Shown here: piece by piece, positions 17,277 to 54,439 of the stretch | Numbering within the stretch: position 1 is the first letter of the stretch | Layout: every line of letters starts with the position of its first letter | Source: a virus | Taxonomy: Duplodnaviria; Caudoviricetes | DNA length: 64,000 bases | Direction: 5' to 3' (one strand) | Virus record (IMG/VR): IMGVR_UViG_3300042483_000388 | The notes under the pieces: generated by a model | The model's input: the letters and a program-made list of their open reading frames with translations, nothing else | Database searches by the model: none | What the model was told of the DNA's origin: nothing | Made by a program: the position numbers and the translations under genes

Positions 17277-18407
17277 TTAAATTACATATATCTGTCTTGG
17301 CATTGCCCTAAATTTCAGTTGTTTGTTTAGGTTTTCGGCAAGTAAGGCCTCTCTTTCCATAACCTTTTCTGGTTTAAGTCTTGTTAATCTTCCTTCAGGT
17401 CCAATAAGTTCGTCAATTAATTTTGTCTTTTCGTCTTTAGCTTCAGTTGCAAGTGCCGCATAATCCATAGTTAAATCACCACCATCGGCAGTTTTTAAGT
17501 TTCCACTAAACTTACCACGAACTCTTGATAATGTTTCTTTACAATAGGCAATAAACCACCTTCTTATCCAAACCTGAGCCGGATTATTTAACTTATACCA
17601 ACTTAATTTATCAAATGGAACGTCAGATGGTAATTTAATAATGTCGGGGTTATCAGCCAAACATTTGTCCCTATCTCCCTGACCTAAGTCATAATACCAA
17701 TACCAAACTCTACCTTTCATTAATTCCGCACTACCAAAATCAAATCTACCACCCGGTGTATTTAAAAGATGTAATGCCTTTTTACCTTCAGGTAAAGCGG
17801 TAATGTAATATGTTAAATCGCCTCGTAAAACTCTTTTTTGTATGTTAATCTCTTGCATTCTTAACAACATATCAAACACAGGTGTTAAGAAATAATTTAC
17901 TCCTGAATTACCCATTTGAGCAAGTCCACCACCACCACCAAGACCAGTTCCTTCACCGACACCACCAAAACCACCAACCCCAAAGATTGCATTATCTAAG
18001 GTTGATTGGGTAAACCATAACACTTCGTTAATTTCACGACCTGCGGGTATTTCATATATTTGTTGATTTTTAACCAACTGCACATAATCTTTTTTAATTA
18101 CCCAATCACCACCAGCTTGTAAACCAACAATTTTTGAGTATGCGTAAGTATATCTGTCTTCATAATTTAGACTTTTAGTTAAGAACGCTCTTGAGAGAGA
18201 TTGTGTATCCAAATTAAGGTTATCTAACGCTGTCCATTGAGCTTCAATTAACCAATCCTGAACATATTGTGAGTAGTCGTCTATTGAGAATTCCAATAAT
18301 GTGTCCATCATTTCATCTTCTAATTCAACGGATCTTAAAGGGGCACCCAATAAGTGTCTAATCTTTTGATAAAGTTTACTTCTTTCCGGTTCGTTTATAA
18401 TTGACAT
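17277..18407 (-). CDS. Neck / head-completion protein (T4 gp13-like)
   Basis: N-terminal LYQKIRHLLGAPLRSVELEDEMMD resembles the gp13 LGAP..VE motif; C-terminal W..R..IAYCKE.L..VRGKF..; structural context. Confidence 0.7.
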   Translation of the reverse strand: MSIINEPERSKLYQKIRHLLGAPLRSVELEDEMMDTLLEFSIDDYSQYVQDWLIEAQWTALDNLNLDTQSLSRAFLTKSLNYEDRYTYAYSKIVGLQAGGDWVIKKDYVQLVKNQQIYEIPAGREINEVLWFTQSTLDNAIFGVGGFGGVGEGTGLGGGGGLAQMGNSGVNYFLTPVFDMLLRMQEINIQKRVLRGDLTYYITALPEGKKALHLLNTPGGRFDFGSAELMKGRVWYWYYDLGQGDRDKCLADNPDIIKLPSDVPFDKLSWYKLNNPAQVWIRRWFIAYCKETLSRVRGKFSGNLKTADGGDLTMDYAALATEAKDEKTKLIDELIGPEGRLTRLKPEKVMEREALLAENLNKQLKFRAMPRQIYVI

Positions 18408-18449
18408 AAGACTTTTTTAATATAAATATCTTTATAATTAATTTCTTAA

Positions 18450-20660
18450 CTATTGACAGATAACCTTACCCTTTAAGGTTGGTGGTACTTGTAGTTCAAT
18501 TGGTTCTAAAATGTCTTTATCAACAAATTTATACGCATTTATTTTTGTGTATTTGGGATCTATTCTAAACCTTATGGATAATCTTTTTTCGTCACAACCT
18601 CTTTGACCTTTATTAGACCAATAAAGTTCTATGAATTCTGTAGGTATTAAAATATTGTTTTCATAAAAAATCCCCGACATTTTACTTTTTACCTTTTGTA
18701 AAAAATTTTCAGACAATTGATTTTTTTCTAACCATATAAAGATTCTTTCTATTAACTTATTATATAATTCAATATATGCCGGTTTTTGATTAAGTATTGA
18801 ACTCTCCTTAAAAATTGAAAAGAATTCAGATAAATAACTATCAATAAATGGGTCCATTTTTTTAACCTCAAAAAAAGAACCTTTAGGATAAATAACATTT
18901 CCTTCTTCATCTTTAAAGTCTGACTTACTTTCTAAATCTGCCTTTATGTAATGTGACCCACTTTTAAATGAATTTGATAAACAATTAGTTATCCTAAAAA
19001 AATGGTAGTTTATTGTTTCTTGACCCGATTGAATTTTAACTAATGTATCAAATAATTTTTCTTTTGCGTCATCAGAACAAGCGTAATTTAATTGCAATCT
19101 TGTTGATTTTTTATTGAAGAAATCCCCAACAAATCTATTTTCGTATTTTTGATGTTCCAAGTATCTTGCGTTACGCAAAAGAGAATCTAAATTTTCTGGT
19201 GCTATGGAAGTATTTTTTTGTTTTTTTAAAACTCTAAAAGTTTCTGTTTCATTAAAATTTTTATCTTTTATAAAATCAGAAATTAATTCTAAAAAGTTTA
19301 TAGTTTTTTCTTGGTTTTGTAATGAAAGATTTATAATTTGAGGGAATGTCCCAACAATCTTCTTACTAAAAAAATTATCTAACATTAGTATGGAATGTTC
19401 TAATCTTTGAATAAGATTTTGATCTGTAAGTGTGTCTCTAAAAGCTTTAAGTTTACAAAACGGAGAGTCGTTAATTTTTTTTAATTCGGTATATTCACAC
19501 AAATAGGTTATTTTCGATTGTTGTCTTAATGCAATCTCATTTATCTTAACTATTCTAGATTCTTTTAATGGTTTGTTTTTTGTTCTTAACACATAAAGTT
19601 GGTTAACAAATTCCCAATTAACACTATCCCAAAACTTTTTAATATATTCATCTCTTTTGTTTTGATATTTTAAATAGTAAGCGTGTTCCCAAACATCAAG
19701 ACCAAGAAGTGGATATCCACCACCTTTAACTATATTCATTAATGGATTGTCCTGATTTGGTGTGGACATAATTTTTAACTCATTATTTTTTGATAAATAT
19801 AACCAAGCCCATCCAGAACCAAAACGTTCTTTTGCTGCTTCATTAAACTCATCCTTCATTTTTTTTATGTTTCCAAAATCCAATGTAATTTTTTTTAGAA
19901 TATCCCCTTTAGGAAGTTGTTTCTTTGGTGAGAGCATTTTCCAAAACAATGCGTGATTAAAAGCACCACCCGCATTATTTCTAACTTTGTCATCAAACTT
20001 ACTAATTGTTTTAATTATTTCTTCTAACTCTATATCACCATCTTTGTTTTTCAAAGCGTCATTTAATTTTTTAACATAACCCTTATAGTGTTTGTTATAG
20101 TGAATGTCCATAGTTTTGGAGTCTATGAACTTACTTAATGACGAATAAGAATAAGGTAATTTTTCAATACCGATTTTTTTCATTTCAAGAATTAAGTTTT
20201 CCTTAACCCCACCTTTTTCTATTAATAAAAGTTGTTCATTAATAATTCCCAACCTTTTTTTAATTCCTTTATCCTCAAACATCATATCTCGGATTTCGGG
20301 AAATTTCTTTTCAAACATTTTAATTAATTGACCAGCAAATGCGTTTGCTTCATCTTCATTTTTACCTCCAATATCTGGACCATGTTCTCTGTTTAATATT
20401 GTTAATTGGTATTCGTGAACCCACTCGTGAGCTAAAGTTCTTAATATATCACGATTAAGTCGTCCTTTTGATAGTATTTTTAATGTTGAATCCATTGTCC
20501 TACTTCCTGTGGACATTTCACTATCTCTAACCCCTAAAAAATTAATTTTTAAATCATTCCTTAATGGGTATTTTGTTTGTAAGAATGCGATAAATTTCTT
20601 GGTAAGAACTTTATCTTCCTTGGTCATATCGCATTTTATATGTTTGATCGAAACTTTCAT
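18450..20660 (-). CDS. Fusion: IrrE/ImmA-like HExxH metallopeptidase + Fe/Mn superoxide dismutase + unknown C-terminal domain
   Basis: LAHEWVHE...EDEANAFAG (zincin/M78-like). SOD motifs LPYSYSSL, IHYNKHY, NHALFW, FGSGWAWL, TPNQDNP and DVWEHAYY, with all four metal ligands present. Confidence 0.85.
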   Translation of the reverse strand: MKVSIKHIKCDMTKEDKVLTKKFIAFLQTKYPLRNDLKINFLGVRDSEMSTGSRTMDSTLKILSKGRLNRDILRTLAHEWVHEYQLTILNREHGPDIGGKNEDEANAFAGQLIKMFEKKFPEIRDMMFEDKGIKKRLGIINEQLLLIEKGGVKENLILEMKKIGIEKLPYSYSSLSKFIDSKTMDIHYNKHYKGYVKKLNDALKNKDGDIELEEIIKTISKFDDKVRNNAGGAFNHALFWKMLSPKKQLPKGDILKKITLDFGNIKKMKDEFNEAAKERFGSGWAWLYLSKNNELKIMSTPNQDNPLMNIVKGGGYPLLGLDVWEHAYYLKYQNKRDEYIKKFWDSVNWEFVNQLYVLRTKNKPLKESRIVKINEIALRQQSKITYLCEYTELKKINDSPFCKLKAFRDTLTDQNLIQRLEHSILMLDNFFSKKIVGTFPQIINLSLQNQEKTINFLELISDFIKDKNFNETETFRVLKKQKNTSIAPENLDSLLRNARYLEHQKYENRFVGDFFNKKSTRLQLNYACSDDAKEKLFDTLVKIQSGQETINYHFFRITNCLSNSFKSGSHYIKADLESKSDFKDEEGNVIYPKGSFFEVKKMDPFIDSYLSEFFSIFKESSILNQKPAYIELYNKLIERIFIWLEKNQLSENFLQKVKSKMSGIFYENNILIPTEFIELYWSNKGQRGCDEKRLSIRFRIDPKYTKINAYKFVDKDILEPIELQVPPTLKGKVICQ

Positions 20661-20680
20661 TATTGATAAATATCAAGAAT

Positions 20681-22444
20681 TTAGTATTTCACCGAATGTA
20701 TCTTATTAAGAATAAGTTCAACAATATCTCCCTTTTCATCTAAGTCATCACCCATAACGGTATTGATGTTTTTTTTCTTATCATTTACCATATCATATAT
20801 GACGCTCTCAATTGAGTTAATAAATAATGGATAATAAATTGATACAGAATTATTTTGACCATATCTGTAAGCCCTATCTTCCCCTTGAGCTAGATCGCCA
20901 GGAACAAACGATAGGTCATTCATAATTACGGCTTCAGCAGCAGTTAAAGTAATTCCTACTCCGGCAGCTTTTAAATTTCCAACAAAAACATTTATTTTAT
21001 CGTTCTCTTGGAATTGGTCAACCGCATGTTGTCGTTGTGGTTTTGAAGTTGATCCGTCTAATCTCACGGCTTGTTTTCCAAAATGGTCGGCAATTTTATT
21101 TAATGTGTCGGTAAAATTGGTAAATATAATAACTTTTTTCCCCTGTTCTATAATATTTTCGGCTAACTCAATAGTGTCGTTTATTTTTTCTTCGGCAATC
21201 ACTTGACGAACTTTCATTAACTTACTAAACTGAACCGTTAATGAACTACTCTCGTTTGGATTTTTATTATACCATTCATAATATTCCCCCATCAATCCTT
21301 CATAAAGTTTTGATTTTAATTTTAGGTAAACTGGTGTTATAATTTTTTCTGGTAAGTCTAAAACTTCTGTCTTTAATCTTCTTAATACTTGTCGAGAAGT
21401 TCTATCTCTTAACTCTTCTAAATTGGTTGCTCCGGCAACATTCCATATTTTTCTTTTTCCGGCAGTAAATTGGTAACCACCACAATATCGTATTGCATAT
21501 GCCATCCAGTTTTGTGATACGGGACTATCAATTATTGATAACAGGTTGAAATAATTCATTGGTCTATTTGTCATCGGCGTTCCTGTTAATAACCATACTC
21601 TTTTACAATTTTTCGTAAACGAATTAACTAATTTGGATCGTATGCTTGTTCCGTTAGAAACATAGTGAGCCTCATCTAAAATTATGAGGTCAAAATTTCC
21701 TTGGCTTATCAATGAGTTATCTTTATCCTTTATATCATAAAAGTTTTTTAGGATATCATAATTTATGATAACAAAATCGTGTTCGGTTGAAAACTTTTTT
21801 CCCTCAGCAATATAAACTGAACGATCCGTATAGTTCTCAATCTCACGTTGCCAGTTAATTTTTAAAGATGCGGGACAAACAATTAAAATCTTTTTTACGT
21901 TACACTCTAAAGCGGCGATAATGGTTGCGGTTGTTTTACCCAATCCCATATCGTCCGCAAGAATAAATCTTTTTGAACCGGCAAGTTTTTCTATTGCCTC
22001 TTTTTGGTGAGATAATGGGGGTCTGTGATCGTATTTGGAATAATCAACCTCAACTCTTTCAACATTATGTGTTTTAATTATGGAAGATTTAGGAACCCAA
22101 AACTCTGTTAATGGATCTTTTTCAAAGAACTTACCCCATATATGATACGACTTTTCCTTTTCTACTAATAATTTTTCAATATAAATTTTTTCAGGAGTTT
22201 CCAATAGGTATCTCTCTTCTGCAAACTTTTTTGCGAAGTATGTGTCTAAGTCAACCCATTTACGAGCAACTTTTGGAGTTGTATTATAATAGTTAACGAT
22301 ATAGTCTGATTGTGACCTTGTTGGGTAAAACTTTTTTGAACTTAGTTTTTTATTTTGCAAATATAGGATGTGGTTATTTGCCCCACTATATGAGTCTAAC
22401 AAATCGAGAGCTCTATTCTCTATGATTGATTGGACATTTTCCAA
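20681..22444 (-). CDS. SNF2/SWI2-family DNA helicase/translocase
   Basis: ILADDMGLGKT (Walker A), IILDEAH (DExH), LTGTP and EDRAYRYGQ (motif VI); TTG start. Confidence 0.92.
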   Translation of the reverse strand: MENVQSIIENRALDLLDSYSGANNHILYLQNKKLSSKKFYPTRSQSDYIVNYYNTTPKVARKWVDLDTYFAKKFAEERYLLETPEKIYIEKLLVEKEKSYHIWGKFFEKDPLTEFWVPKSSIIKTHNVERVEVDYSKYDHRPPLSHQKEAIEKLAGSKRFILADDMGLGKTTATIIAALECNVKKILIVCPASLKINWQREIENYTDRSVYIAEGKKFSTEHDFVIINYDILKNFYDIKDKDNSLISQGNFDLIILDEAHYVSNGTSIRSKLVNSFTKNCKRVWLLTGTPMTNRPMNYFNLLSIIDSPVSQNWMAYAIRYCGGYQFTAGKRKIWNVAGATNLEELRDRTSRQVLRRLKTEVLDLPEKIITPVYLKLKSKLYEGLMGEYYEWYNKNPNESSSLTVQFSKLMKVRQVIAEEKINDTIELAENIIEQGKKVIIFTNFTDTLNKIADHFGKQAVRLDGSTSKPQRQHAVDQFQENDKINVFVGNLKAAGVGITLTAAEAVIMNDLSFVPGDLAQGEDRAYRYGQNNSVSIYYPLFINSIESVIYDMVNDKKKNINTVMGDDLDEKGDIVELILNKIHSVKY

Positions 22445-22489: not shown

Positions 22490-23452
22490 ATGAATAAGTT
22501 TGAATTATATGGATTATTTTGTCCCGACACAGATCAATTAAAATATATTGGTATAACAAAAAATGGATTACAAAAAAGATTAAAAAACCATTTAAAAAAA
22601 CCAACAAATAAATTTATTTCAAAATGGTTCAGTTCTTTGAGTGATGAGAATAAAATCCCAATAATTAGACAAATAAAAGAATGTAATACCTACGATGATT
22701 TACTACAATCTGAAATATATGAAATTTCAAAATATAGAAAATTAAACTTTGATTTATATAATCTTACCGACGGTGGAGATATCAATCCTATGTTGGGTAA
22801 AACACATAGTGAAGAATCTAAAAAAAAAATATCTCTAATACATAAAGGTAAAAAATTATCAGAAGACGAAAAGTTAAAAAGAAAAGAACGCATCAAAGAA
22901 TTATGGTCAGATACAGAGTGGTCAGAAAAAATTAAGAAAAAAATGAGTGATAACACCAAAGGAGAAAAAAATCCTAACTGGAGAGGTGGTTTTAGAAATT
23001 TAACTTGTTTGTGTGGTAATAAAAAAAACCATTATTCTAAAACTTGTTTGAAATGTAGGGATTGTTATGGTAAAAAAAATAATTTTTTTAATAAAAAACA
23101 TAGTAAAGAAACCTTATCAATTTTAGCGGAAAAAAGTAAAAAGTTTGGTAATGAAAATCCTAATTTTAAATATGATATTAAAAGTGATGAACTATATGAT
23201 TTATATGTTGTAAAAAATAAAACCATAATTGAAATTAGTAATTTATTTAATTGTCATATAAACACAATAAATAAAAAATTGAGACAATATAAAATATATA
23301 AACCAAAATCTAATATTTATAATTTAGTGGTTGATGAGATAAAAAATCATTTAATAAATGAATTAAATTATGTTCAGATTGGTAAAATCTATGGTTGTAG
23401 TAATAAAATCATACATAAATTTGTAAAAAAAAATAACATATATGTCAAATAG
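22490..23452 (+). mobile_element. Free-standing GIY-YIG homing endonuclease with NUMOD3 repeats
   Basis: LYGLFCPDTDQLKYIGIT (GIY-YIG variant), YNLTDGGD, and NUMOD3-like GKTHSEESKKKIS and KKHSKETLSIL; very A-rich; overlaps the next gene by 11 nt. Confidence 0.85.
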
Positions 23453-25252: not shown

Positions 25253-25259
25253 TATTTAT
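25253..25259 (+). promoter_or_regulatory. TATTTAT putative late-promoter motif upstream of the tail sheath gene (representative copy)
   Basis: The same heptamer lies 4-53 nt upstream of about 16 starts (see findings). Confidence 0.65.
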
Positions 25260-25291: not shown

Positions 25292-28200
25292 ATGGCAACT
25301 AATAGTAAAGTTTTTGTTTCTCCGGGAGTATATACGTCCGAAGTTGACTTAAGTTTTGTGGCACAGAGTGTTGGTGTTACAACTTTGGGAATCGCTGGAG
25401 AGACAATAATAGGACCAGCTTTCGAACCTATTTTCATTACGAATTTTACGGAATTCCAATCTGTATTTGGTGGAGTATCACCAGAAAAGTTCGTAAACAC
25501 ACAAATTCCAAAATACGAAGCGGCGTATATTGCACAAGCATACTTACAACAATCAAATCAATTGTTTGTAACAAGAATCCTAGGTTTATCAGGATATGAT
25601 GCTGGACCATCTTGGTCAATTACAACAATTGCAAATGTTGACCCAAACACAATTGATGTTTGGTGTTTAAGTTCGGTAACAGATTTTAGCACTTGTATAA
25701 CAACTTGTGTTGACCCTAAAGAATTATCATTTGTTGTTGATTTTACTGGTTGTACTAATGATTCATCAACTATTGGGTATACAACAACATTCCCTGATAC
25801 AATCGAATCTCAACTATACACACAATATGAAGAATTTAATGGTGGAGTATCAACAATAGATGATCAAATTAAACAATTGGTCTTCAATGTCATTACAGAT
25901 TCAAATCCTTATATGGCCGAAGATGAATTGATTTCATATTTTGGTTCTATCGCAACAGATGATTATAACACATTACAGGGAGCTGGATGGTCAGCAGAAA
26001 CAAACGTTTACCAAGTTCCTTCAGTTTCATTTGATAACACATCATTAACGTCTTCGTTAAATGATTCTTGGTATTACTCCCAATTCGCCCACACTGGCGG
26101 AACGGCTTATTCAGGATTCTCATTCTTTTCTTATGTGTCAGGTATTACGGCTTACTACCCTAACCCGACACCTACACCACAGGTTTCATCGTCTCCGACG
26201 CCAACACCATCATCTGTTAATCCTTGTATTACACCGTCACCATTTACATCACCAACACCAACACCAACACCGGTTAATATAGACTGTTATCAGGGAAGTA
26301 TTGTTGGTAAGATTTACTACTACACAGGTACTTCATATACAAACTATGATGATGTTGTTGTTACAACCTTAAGATCAAGAGGTATTTCAACATATGCTCC
26401 GAATCAACCAGAACCTGCATACCAAGTAACTGGTGTTACAGACGTAACTTTGAATATGTCAGGACAATACTTCGGTGTTGGTAAAAACCCTTATTTACAA
26501 TTCGCAGTAAATGTGGTTGATAAAACAGGAACAAACTTCACGTTTGAAACCTCATTAAGTCAAAATGATCCAGAATATATTACTAAAGTATTTGGTATTA
26601 CTAATTTCCAAAAACCAAGAATTACGGTTCCATTATTTTGTGAGGAAGTATTCCAGTCATGGTTAAACTATTCTTGGAATAAAGGATATATTAGAGGTTT
26701 AAGTTCTCAATTAGTTGAATTAGACTCTGCGCAAAGTGGTGATATTAACTCAATAGGTTGGTATTTAGATAGATATCAAACACCAAACTCCCCATGGGTT
26801 GTATCAGAATTAAGAGGTAATAAAGTTTTTGACCTATTTAGATTCTATACCATTTCAGATGGTGATGGTGCTAACACACTACTTAAATTATCAATTATTA
26901 ATCAAACATTTAATAATGGAACATTTGATGTCTTAGTGAGGGATTACTTTGATACAGATGCTAACCCTGTTGTTATTGAGAAATTTACAAATTGTACAAT
27001 GGATCCAGGACAAAACAACTTTATTGGTGTTAAGATTGGAACATTAGATGGTGAATATACTTTAATGTCTAAATACATTATGGTTGAAATTAATGAGGAT
27101 GCTCCGATAGATGCACTTCCTTGTGGATTCAACGGATATAATTTTAGAAATTATGCTGGAGCCAAATCAGCGTTCCCAATCATTAAAGCAAAATACGATT
27201 ATCCGGGAGAAGTAGTTTACGATCCACCATTTGGTTTATCATCCGGAAACAATGACGCTATTTTAAGTAGTGGTGATAATGTAAGAAGAACATACTTAGG
27301 TATTTCTAATAGTTACGGATGGGATCCTGGTTATTACGAATATGTTGGTAAGAGAAATCCAATCAACTCTTGTGATATTGATAGTGTTCCATTTAACTAT
27401 AGGTCAGCTGGTTTCCACATGGATATAAATGCAAGTGGTATCACAATCGGACCTGAGTTCTCAACAAGTGGTGATCCAAGATTTGTTTGTGGTAACGCTC
27501 AATTTATTACTGATCCGGATTCACCAACAAACCCATACTATAGGTTATTCGCTCGTAAATTCAACTTATTAGTACAAGGCGGATTTGACGGATGGGATAT
27601 ATATAGAGAATATAGAACAAATAGTGATCAATTTTCTTTAGGTAGACCAGGGTTCTTACGAGGAGCTTGTCCAAGTACACTTTACCCATCTGCAACAGGT
27701 TGGGGAGCATTTAAACAAATTGCGATTGGTGACGGAACTATGGATTTTGCGAATACTGACTACTACGCATACTTGTTAGGTCAACAAACATTTGCAAACC
27801 CTGAAGCAACAAACATAAACGTATTTGTTACACCAGGAATTGATTATGTGAATAATAGTAACTTGGTAGAAGATGCGGTTAACATGATTGAATTCAATAG
27901 AGCTGACTCTTTGTATATTACAACAACCCCTGATTACGATTTGTTTTTACCTTCAACTACTGGTGGGGATGGATTAATCTACCCAACTGAAGCGGTAGAT
28001 AATTTAGAGAACACAGGTATTGACTCTAACTACACTTGTACTTACTACCCTTGGGTGTTAACAAGAGATAGTGTGAACAACACTCAAATCTATATTCCAC
28101 CAACAGCACAAGTAACAAGAAACTTGGCGTTAACTGACAACATTGCATTCCCTTGGTTCGCAGCGGCAGGTTACACTCGTGGTATTGTTAACTGTATTAA

Positions 28201-53539: not shown

Positions 53540-53884
53540 ATGAGAAGAACAATAAGATTAACAGAAAGAGATTTATCAAGATTAGTTAGACGAGCAATCC
53601 ATGAAATGGATGACCAATCTGAAATAGGAGGTAACTCCTCAACTAAAAGTGCAATGGACACTGTTAGTGAATTTTTAGAATCAAACGGTGGTGGTTTGGG
53701 ATCTAGAAATAACGACGATATTGAAAAAGATCTTCAGGCTTTAGAATATGCTATTCGAATAGAAAGAAATCAATTAGGTGTTAGCAATCAATCTGCAGGA
53801 TACAAAAATAGAAGTAATAATGAAGACGGTGGAATGGGAGATGAACAATTATCCGAAAGATATAATAAAAGAAGAAGAAATTAA
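53540..53884 (+). CDS. Putative internal head protein with RLTERDLSRLVRR leader
   Basis: N-terminus nearly identical to the next gene; acidic body; basic tail LSERYNKRRRN; TATTTAT at 53516-53522. Confidence 0.6.
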   Translation: MRRTIRLTERDLSRLVRRAIHEMDDQSEIGGNSSTKSAMDTVSEFLESNGGGLGSRNNDDIEKDLQALEYAIRIERNQLGVSNQSAGYKNRSNNEDGGMGDEQLSERYNKRRRN

Positions 53885-53890
53885 AAAATT

Positions 53891-54439
53891 ATGGGAAAAA
53901 TTGTAAGATTAACAGAAAGAGATTTATCTAGACTTGTTAGACGGGTTATTAAAGAAGAAGAAGAACAAGATGAAATTGCTGGTAATGTTGAGTCAATTCT
54001 TAACAAACCTAAAGTTGAAATGAAAATTGAAGATATCTATTCTAATCTAAGTGATGACGAAAAAAGAAAACTTGAATCGTCTTTAAATGATTTGGGTATC
54101 AACGCATATACTTCACCAAAAGAAGCTCATGCCGCAGTTCAAAATGTAGCTGATAATATTGGTGGTGAAATGAGTGAAGGTGATGAGAATATGGATCCAA
54201 AAGAAAAAGTTGCCAATATTCTACACGGAATAGGAGAAGCAAATATTGCGGCTTGGGGTGGAGTTCCGGCAGCAATAGTAATTGGCGGTCTTTTAGCTGG
54301 AACTGTTGGAGCACCTATGATTGCGGGATTTGCAATTAGTTGGGGGGTTACCGCTTTATTAATGGGATTAGCAAAACTATTGGCTAAAGATAAATCTAAC
54401 ACTAATGAAAGTTATTATAGACGAAATAGAAGATACTAA
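53891..54439 (+). CDS. Putative internal head / ejection protein with RLTERDLSRLVRR leader and a hydrophobic Gly-rich hairpin
   Basis: Shared leader; hydrophobic stretch IAAWGGVPAAIVIGGLLAGTVGAPMIAGFAISWGVTALLMGLAKLLA; basic tail NESYYRRNRRY. Confidence 0.6.
   Translation: MGKIVRLTERDLSRLVRRVIKEEEEQDEIAGNVESILNKPKVEMKIEDIYSNLSDDEKRKLESSLNDLGINAYTSPKEAHAAVQNVADNIGGEMSEGDENMDPKEKVANILHGIGEANIAAWGGVPAAIVIGGLLAGTVGAPMIAGFAISWGVTALLMGLAKLLAKDKSNTNESYYRRNRRY

Follow-up and report, generated by a model that had tools for sequence, protein, structure and literature searches.

A Mn-type superoxide dismutase with exchangeable flanking domains in a marine jumbo phage lineage: a candidate packaged polyprotein

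The 64,000-nucleotide (nt) stretch of viral DNA analyzed here (IMG/VR record IMGVR_UViG_3300042483_000388, hereafter the window) comes from a marine jumbo myovirus that is AT-rich (~32% GC) and has not been cultured. One of its genes encodes a fusion of three domains: a predicted zincin at the N terminus, an intact Mn-type superoxide dismutase (SOD) in the center, and an exchangeable, uncharacterized domain at the C terminus (the C-domain). The gene occupies a fixed slot in the genome and has a conserved promoter motif, and this picture at the level of domains is close to certain. The fate of the protein is proposed with less confidence. In the reading preferred here, to which we assign a probability of roughly 0.45, the fusion would be a precursor that is packaged in the prohead, cut by a protease of the T4 gp21 type, and injected into the host as fragments. 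The broader proposal, that this marine jumbo phage lineage loads an active Mn-SOD and exchangeable enzyme cassettes as a polyprotein, with linkers that are retained cargo leaders cut by the prohead protease, is put forward tentatively, as a possibility well short of even odds.

The three parts of the fusion are encoded in a single open reading frame (ORF), as had been noted when the window was first annotated. ENA/Tara and IMG/VR contigs of independent origin encode the same 736-residue protein at 97–99% identity, and contigs as long as 279 kb carry the complete three-part architecture at 50–70% identity. Because independent contigs carry the same protein, the fusion is not an artefact of assembly, and a chimera is ruled out. 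The fusion is represented in more than 1,000 protein clusters, and the IMG/VR loci that carry it number at least 590, always with the gene in the slot between an SNF2 helicase and a T4 gp13-like neck gene. The motifs quoted in the initial annotation were all located: HEWVH (residues 78–82) and NEDEANAFAG (101–110) in the zincin, LLIE (E148) and LILE (E159) in the first linker, LKE (E367) and INE (E375) in the second, and IKADLE (K573, D575) and FEVKK (E598, K600) in the C-domain. PADLOC gave no defence or anti-defence annotation, and a feature search of a protein atlas produced no usable match.

The SOD is matched by Pfam Sod_Fe_N at residues 166–244 (74.2 bits, gathering threshold 27, E 1.2e-20) and by Sod_Fe_C at residues 250–354 (135.3 bits, gathering threshold 20.9, E 8.9e-40). 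These matches correspond to nt ~20165–19599, where the initial annotation had placed an intact Fe/Mn SOD. The metal ligands H187, H236, D322 and H326 and the gateway residue Y195 are invariant in 41 homologues. The signature of the Mn type is present in G231-G232 and Q303 (in NQD), and the best solved relative is the Sphingobacterium MnSOD (6gsc/5a9g, E 8e-64), aligned over the full length to 6gsc. The signature and the nearest solved relatives point to Mn rather than Fe as the metal. The initial annotation had also described phage SODs as often of the Cu/Zn type. This tendency is not borne out, as stand-alone Fe/Mn SODs are encoded by a number of deposited jumbo phages, among them the PA5oct group and Vibrio phage 2.275.O. 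Literature searches on phage or virion SODs returned nothing relevant.

What stays constant in the slot is the SOD together with a 30-residue helical pre-sequence; the zincin may be present or absent, and so may the C-terminal domain. A zincin-less form of 262 residues, which occurs on contigs as long as 310 kb, begins with MKKLESKAELIKEEIISQDKKGYQDFLITE and continues with MKRIGIEKLPY. The C-terminal position holds either nothing or one of at least three types of tail, mutually unrelated by BLAST; types A (the C-domain of the window) and B were also considered as distant homologues, which found no support in hhalign (probability 0.3%). In the tail-less zincin-SOD forms of 362–367 residues the gene for gp13 follows directly, with no tail homologue downstream, and the tail has not been split off as a gene of its own. 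Forms with two tails also exist (958 and 910 residues). Close relatives can differ in their tails, as P0082 (91% SOD identity) has type B and P0004 (88% SOD identity) type A. Together with the gain and loss of the zincin and of tails, this bears out the suggestion in the initial annotation that homologues might swap the domains flanking the SOD. In the close relative G001, an IMG/VR contig of 272.6 kb (CheckV 93% complete) whose common genes are 60–89% identical to those of the window, a paralogue of the type-B tail occurs as a stand-alone protein of 299 residues. It starts with MNSLHEDIRRIKKLMNLLEGE, which by eye only resembles one of the leader families of that contig. The type-B tail carries a D..QVKP motif, which is also nuclease-like; the loci concerned are G001 27438–28337 (locus L088) and G001 124007–126151.

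The TATTTAT motif that had been reported for the fusion gene is present directly upstream of it. Among 58 distinct homologous upstream regions, 51 have TATTTAT at exactly -12, with divergent flanks. In G001, 102 of the 310 ORFs have the motif in the 60 nt that precede them, against an expectation of ~3.4% (an enrichment of about 10-fold). It precedes the genes for the neck, sheath, tube, baseplate and large structural proteins there, and is not found ahead of those for PolB, SNF2, SSB, UvsX, the exonuclease and the ribonucleotide reductase (RNR). The window has the same pattern, with TATTTAT located 11–42 nt upstream of many structural genes. As the motif stands before structural genes and largely not before replication genes, it points to a promoter of the late class, and TATTTAT is taken here as a candidate late promoter that would place expression of the fusion late in infection. 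Some of the transcripts driven by TATTTAT would be nearly leaderless.

In phage T4, gp21 cuts after (L/I)xE, and the internal proteins IPI-III and Alt carry an N-terminal capsid-targeting sequence (CTS) of ~10 residues. The contig G001 encodes, at 184187–184615, a Peptidase_S77 protein (PF03420, the T4 gp21 family; 81 bits, E 1e-23), and at least 33 of its ORFs belong to leader families, with short N-termini that end in (I/L/V)xE, for example MKRIIRLTESDLARIVRRVINE, MKELIRHILKE and MKIIITEDQ.... Two adjacent ORFs of the window start with the same leader of 22 residues, M..(I/V)RLTERDLSRLVRR(A/V)I(H/K)E, which matches the largest leader family of G001; these leaders are candidate capsid-targeting or propeptide labels. 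With leader families and a gp21-type protease both present, the lineage looks like one that has a targeting and processing system of the T4 style.

Motifs of the (L/I)xE type are conserved at both domain junctions of the fusion. In linker 1, which is helical in the predicted structure, [LIVMF]xE occurs at E129, E142, E148 and E159, each kept in 93–100% of the homologues, and the linker terminates in an invariant E159-M160-K161. It is homologous (19 bits) to the 30-residue N-terminal pre-sequence of the zincin-less SODs in the same slot. In the model of the C-domain, disorder is confined to linker 2 (residues 1–24 of the model), where the predicted local distance difference test (pLDDT) score is below 50. 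Linker 2 is the positional equivalent of the N-terminal leader in stand-alone homologues of the C-domain. These stand-alone type-A homologues begin with (L/I)xE leaders from several leader families, and, counted from Cys388 (the first conserved Cys), the [LIVMF]xE motifs of linker 2 are located at -21 and -13, as compared to -20 and -12 in the stand-alone homologue P0125. Of 29 fusions, 19 retain the site at -13, and none lacks a site immediately behind the SOD.

In the preferred reading, the fusion would be made late as an 86.5-kDa precursor of three modules, each of which also occurs separately, and would be taken into the prohead. A gp21-type prohead protease would cut it after E159 (E159|M160) and after E367 and/or E375, giving a zincin fragment of ~18 kDa, a SOD of ~25 kDa and a C-terminal enzyme of ~43 kDa. 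The fragments would be ejected into the host together with the DNA. Early in infection the SOD would clear superoxide there, and the other two fragments, the zincin and the C-domain (which may be a metal-dependent nuclease), would have host targets. The fusion may have arisen from leader-tagged cargo genes that were joined head to tail, with the leaders kept as internal cleavage linkers.

The C-domain has a well-conserved core. Its predicted structure (pLDDT 86.7) consists of a helical half and an α/β half, and an exhaustive profile search places 156 clusters (at 50% identity) in its family. Residues E507, K573, D575, E598, K600, S611, E612 and R693 are invariant among 56 members that share 18–41% identity; in a second alignment, of 39 members, the same residues are invariant except S611, which is nearly so. 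In the model E507 lies at the end of a helix, D575 at the start of a strand, and E598-x-K600 on a later strand. The order of these residues (the upstream acidic E507, D575, ExK) is that of the PD-(D/E)xK motif, and to this extent the loose resemblance to PD-(D/E)xK enzymes remarked on in the initial annotation is upheld, as an invariant E..KxD..ExK pattern. No significant match to a nuclease fold or profile accompanies it, and the assignment is a lead at the level of the motif only. Foldseek finds nothing significant for the C-domain in the PDB (best E 0.57), searches of the AFDB clusters, the ESM Atlas and VIA-wide give no significant match, and a fold search of BFVD returns only an uncharacterized marine-phage protein of the same family. 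The sequence has no match among Pfam, PHROGs, PADLOC or PDB sequence profiles, and no consistent family emerges from Pfam searches with the type-B and type-C tails or with 39 type-A family members (all stand-alone but the query). An Fe-S or Zn cluster was considered and rejected, as the Cys residues are conserved only among close fusions and not across the wider family. The C-domain defines an uncharacterized, phage-restricted family of enzyme-like proteins with a catalytic-looking signature. Multidomain relatives pair it with phage lysozyme, LysM and DUF5661, or with PG_binding_1, or with PcfJ. Four large phage proteins from metagenomes, P0137 (1038 residues), P0185, P0196 and P0148, contain the type-A C-domain along with other domains, and their architecture resembles that of ejection proteins. 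In several of the multidomain relatives the leader MEFKK.DL..(K/N)E stands at the start, with a hydrophobic segment behind it. The sharply conserved signature and these ejection-protein-like contexts make the family a good target for studies of structure and function.

Several observations weigh against packaging and processing. The evidence for a gp21-type protease comes from the relative G001 rather than from the window's own genome. The fusion has no N-terminal capsid-targeting leader, and its residues 3–8 form the first strand of the zincin (pLDDT 92). Hidden Markov models (HMMs) of three leader families of G001 score at most 3 bits on the linkers of the fusions, which is the background level, and the linkers are therefore rejected as copies of the cargo leaders of the lineage. 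The HMM of the pre-sequence has the SOD fusion as its sole match in G001 and matches no other protein there, so that the pre-sequence is not a shared address label. The invariant M160 could be an internal start codon, either a former one or one still in use. The motif [LIVMF]xE is found 24 times in the fusion, 10 of them inside the folded C-domain. It is common because the protein is rich in Lys, Glu, Ile and Leu, and amphipathic helices readily yield it. Finally, a stand-alone homologue of the zincin, of 132 residues, is encoded in the cultured T4-like cyanophage S-SRM01 (164797–165195, or locus L101 3947–4345; tblastn E 2e-5), where it is located among replication genes (DNA polymerase, recombinase, primase/helicase).

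Most of these observations would also be expected if the protein were a late cytoplasmic multi-enzyme that is never packaged. The SOD would then shield the infected cell, or the iron/manganese and radical enzymes of the phage (such as RNR), from superoxide in the late, light-exposed phase of infection, the zincin and the C-domain would be co-expressed accessory enzymes, and the linkers would be structural helices (for example for oligomerization) instead of cleavage sites. The missing leader, the failure of the leader HMMs, a pre-sequence that is specific to the SOD and predicted to be a long helix, the frequency of the motif by composition and the placement of the S-SRM01 homologue are all in line with this explanation, as is the annotation of the stand-alone SODs of cultured jumbo phages as ordinary genes. 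However, a pre-sequence of 30 residues with an invariant (L/I/V)-x-E|MKK end has no obvious use in a soluble SOD. Moreover, C-domains elsewhere are leader-tagged or joined to lysozyme and LysM, and the fusion gene has the promoter motif and the slot of structural genes. On balance this explanation is considered somewhat unlikely, and it ranks second to the preferred reading. The initial annotation had proposed a late-expressed, packaged and processed polyprotein. In comparisons with relatives this proposal is favored by the conserved promoter motif, the gp21-type protease and leaders of G001, the leader-tagged homologues of the C-domain, the matching spacing of their sites and the exchange of flanking domains; against it, the fusion lacks an N-terminal leader and its linkers are not recognized by the leader HMMs. 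A role of the fusion as a stress switch or against defence linked to reactive oxygen species, which had been suggested as well, is pure conjecture.

The predicted structure of the N-terminal domain (pLDDT 88.3) is a compact zincin fold, with a four-stranded sheet, an N-terminal helix, a helix that carries HEWVH, and a second helix that begins with E102-D-E104. The elements are strands at residues 3–8, 37–42, 52–54 and 59–63 and helices at 14–30, 69–87 (with HEWVH) and 100–119 (with E102 and E104). Four residues are invariant, H78, H82, E102 and E104, and a fifth, E79, is almost so. Among the AFDB clusters, fold matches reach E 6.5e-7 and include IrrE-like, SprT-like and DUF4157 entries. The domain had initially been called IrrE-like. 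This call was not sustained, as Pfam Peptidase_M78 (PF06114) reaches only 16.0 bits (E 0.011), under its cutoff of 22, and IrrE is not the closest structural relative. In addition, the fusion has no helix-turn-helix or GAF partner domain of the kind known from IrrE/ImmA (Peptidase_M78), and the third His of the SprT/Wss1-type minimal zincins is not found in it. The sequence does not permit a family-level assignment among IrrE/ImmA and SprT/Wss1. Residues 1–128 are predicted, on the basis of the model, to be a minimal gluzincin that is probably active.

An active zincin could itself process the protein, in cis or in trans, before packaging or after injection; alternatively, a polyvalent effector of this kind could be delivered intact, in either case with no part for the prohead protease. 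The zincin fits the description of the metallopeptidase (MPTase) domains of polyvalent proteins (a three-strand sheet, an N-terminal helix, the HExxH helix, and a Glu on the next helix), its two His residues are invariant and its catalytic-motif Glu nearly so, and the multidomain relatives of the C-domain are polyvalent in their architecture. On the other hand, many members of the slot without a zincin still keep the pre-sequence and its (L/I)xE|MKK end, which makes the junction motif independent of the zincin, and the site motif fits the gp21-type specificity found in the lineage. Self-processing or intact delivery is judged unlikely, and processing by a prohead protease is retained as the preferred reading.

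The genes of the window include those for the sheath, tube, baseplate, PolB, a DnaB-type helicase, a UvsX-like protein, a gp32-like protein and RNR. No cultured relative was found in the phage collection, where megablast returned no match and PolB is ~23% identical to that of Salinibacter phages. In all 85 related loci the order of the slot is SNF2 helicase, SOD gene, gp13-like neck gene and a gene for a 115-residue protein, with PolB on the opposite strand to the slot, and the order from SNF2 helicase through SOD gene to gp13 neck gene is common to every architecture. The product of the neck gene is 74–84% identical to proteins with Pfam Phage_T4_gp13 and matches the PHROG for head-tail adaptor Ad2 (E 4e-8), in agreement with the neck gene placed next to the fusion in the initial annotation. 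In every relative the gene adjoins gp13 and shares its strand, and this position and the late-type promoter motif would also suit a structural component of the neck or collar, or of the virion surface, by which the SOD would be anchored on the particle (for example for protection in sunlit, oxic water). No homology to structural proteins was found for any of the modules, however, and the optional zincin and tail domains are unlike a fixed structural part; such a role is considered very improbable.

Two side observations were made in the window. A homing endonuclease that contains NUMOD3 (PHROG 'homing endonuclease') is encoded at 22490–23452 (plus strand), with the SNF2 helicase on one side and the tail genes on the other. 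The relatives L001, L003, L005 and L103 have no such gene at that position, which suggests a recent insertion. The 14 nt preceding the ATG of the endonuclease gene are the same 14 nt that precede the SOD gene. The nearest solved relatives of the SOD are MnSODs of Bacteroidota (Sphingobacterium), and there are no Shine-Dalgarno-like sequences upstream of the genes; together these hint at a host among the Bacteroidota. The coordinates of the features are given in Table 1.

Table 1. Features of the SOD fusion gene and its surroundings (nt positions in the window; residue numbers refer to the fusion protein)
Feature	Position	Strand	Remarks
SOD fusion ORF	18450..20660	minus	736 residues, uninterrupted; 86.5 kDa; isoelectric point 9.3
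Predicted minimal zincin-fold metallopeptidase-like domain	20277..20660	minus	residues 1–128; HEWVH at nt 20415–20429
Linker 1 (helical pre-sequence)	20184..20276	minus	residues 129–159; ends ..L-x-E, then M-K-K
Mn-type Fe/Mn superoxide dismutase	19593..20183	minus	residues 160–356; intact
Linker 2	19521..19592	minus	residues 357–380; LKE (E367) and INE (E375); disordered
Type-A variable C-terminal domain	18453..19520	minus	residues 381–736; D..ExK motif at nt 18861–18944
Promoter-like TATTTAT	20666..20672	minus	12 nt before the ATG of the fusion
Downstream neighbor, T4 gp13-like neck protein	17277..18407	minus	own TATTTAT at -21 (18422–18428)
Upstream neighbor, SNF2-family helicase	20681..22444	minus	conserved synteny
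Further TATTTAT sites	25253–25259, 29628–29634, 33080–33086	plus	
Leader-tagged ORFs	53540–53884 and 53891–54439	plus	adjacent

If the broader proposal of a polyprotein with an active Mn-SOD holds, this would be the first phage to inject an antioxidant enzyme together with its DNA. It would also offer a simple way in which leader-tagged cargo genes, once separate, could evolve into processed polyproteins, and the architecture suggests such an origin for the polyvalent proteins of phages. Phage SODs have hitherto been treated as ordinary auxiliary genes. Should the SOD be injected or borne by the virion, oxidative stress at infection would be a selective pressure on marine phages, strong enough for a lineage of this size to keep the SOD in one fixed late-gene slot.

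The SOD of the fusion is similar to the bacterial MnSODs, both those of Sphingobacterium and E. coli SodA (1d5n, E 4e-55). It has the full-length fold family, the four ligands, the gateway Tyr and the Gly-Gly/Gln signature in common with them. In comparison, the phage enzyme is embedded in a fusion and is preceded by the conserved helical pre-sequence, and the equivalent of His31 is Tyr192. Virion-packaged SODs are known from large eukaryotic viruses, the chlorovirus PBCV-1 and a megavirus, as stand-alone Cu,Zn enzymes. The concept would be the same, a SOD in the virion that blunts host superoxide at entry, with the difference that packaging of the fusion is only inferred. The lineage shares with the T4 internal proteins a gp21-family protease, leader-tagged proteins, conserved (L/I)xE motifs (here at domain junctions) and what appears to be a gene of the late type. 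Unlike in T4, the candidate sites of the fusion are internal, between domains; it has no N-terminal CTS, and the leader HMMs fail on it.

The closest parallel in architecture may be the polyvalent proteins, among which the zincin-like MPTase is the commonest hub domain, with 12 MPTase clades (Iyer, Burroughs, Anand, de Souza and Aravind 2017, PMC5512222). Packaging of phage polyvalent proteins in the capsid and proteolytic release of their domains were predicted in that study; the proposal covers MPTase-containing proteins such as P1 DdrB, and the N4 virion RNA polymerase is packaged uncut. Superoxide dismutase has no occurrence in PMC5512222. The zincin model agrees with the MPTase description given there (HExxH, and a Glu on the next helix), and the fusion likewise combines several unrelated enzymatic domains with a zincin that is MPTase-like by description, while relatives of its C-domain are fused to lysozyme and LysM. 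On the reading of a packaged and processed precursor, the fusion would be a small member of the polyvalent proteins as described in PMC5512222. It differs from the polyvalent proteins in its small size, with three domains, and in linkers that look like retained cargo leaders with sites of the prohead-protease type. New are the SOD that forms the constant core of the slot, linkers with an architecture of apparently retained leaders, and an uncharacterized, phage-restricted family of C-terminal enzymes.

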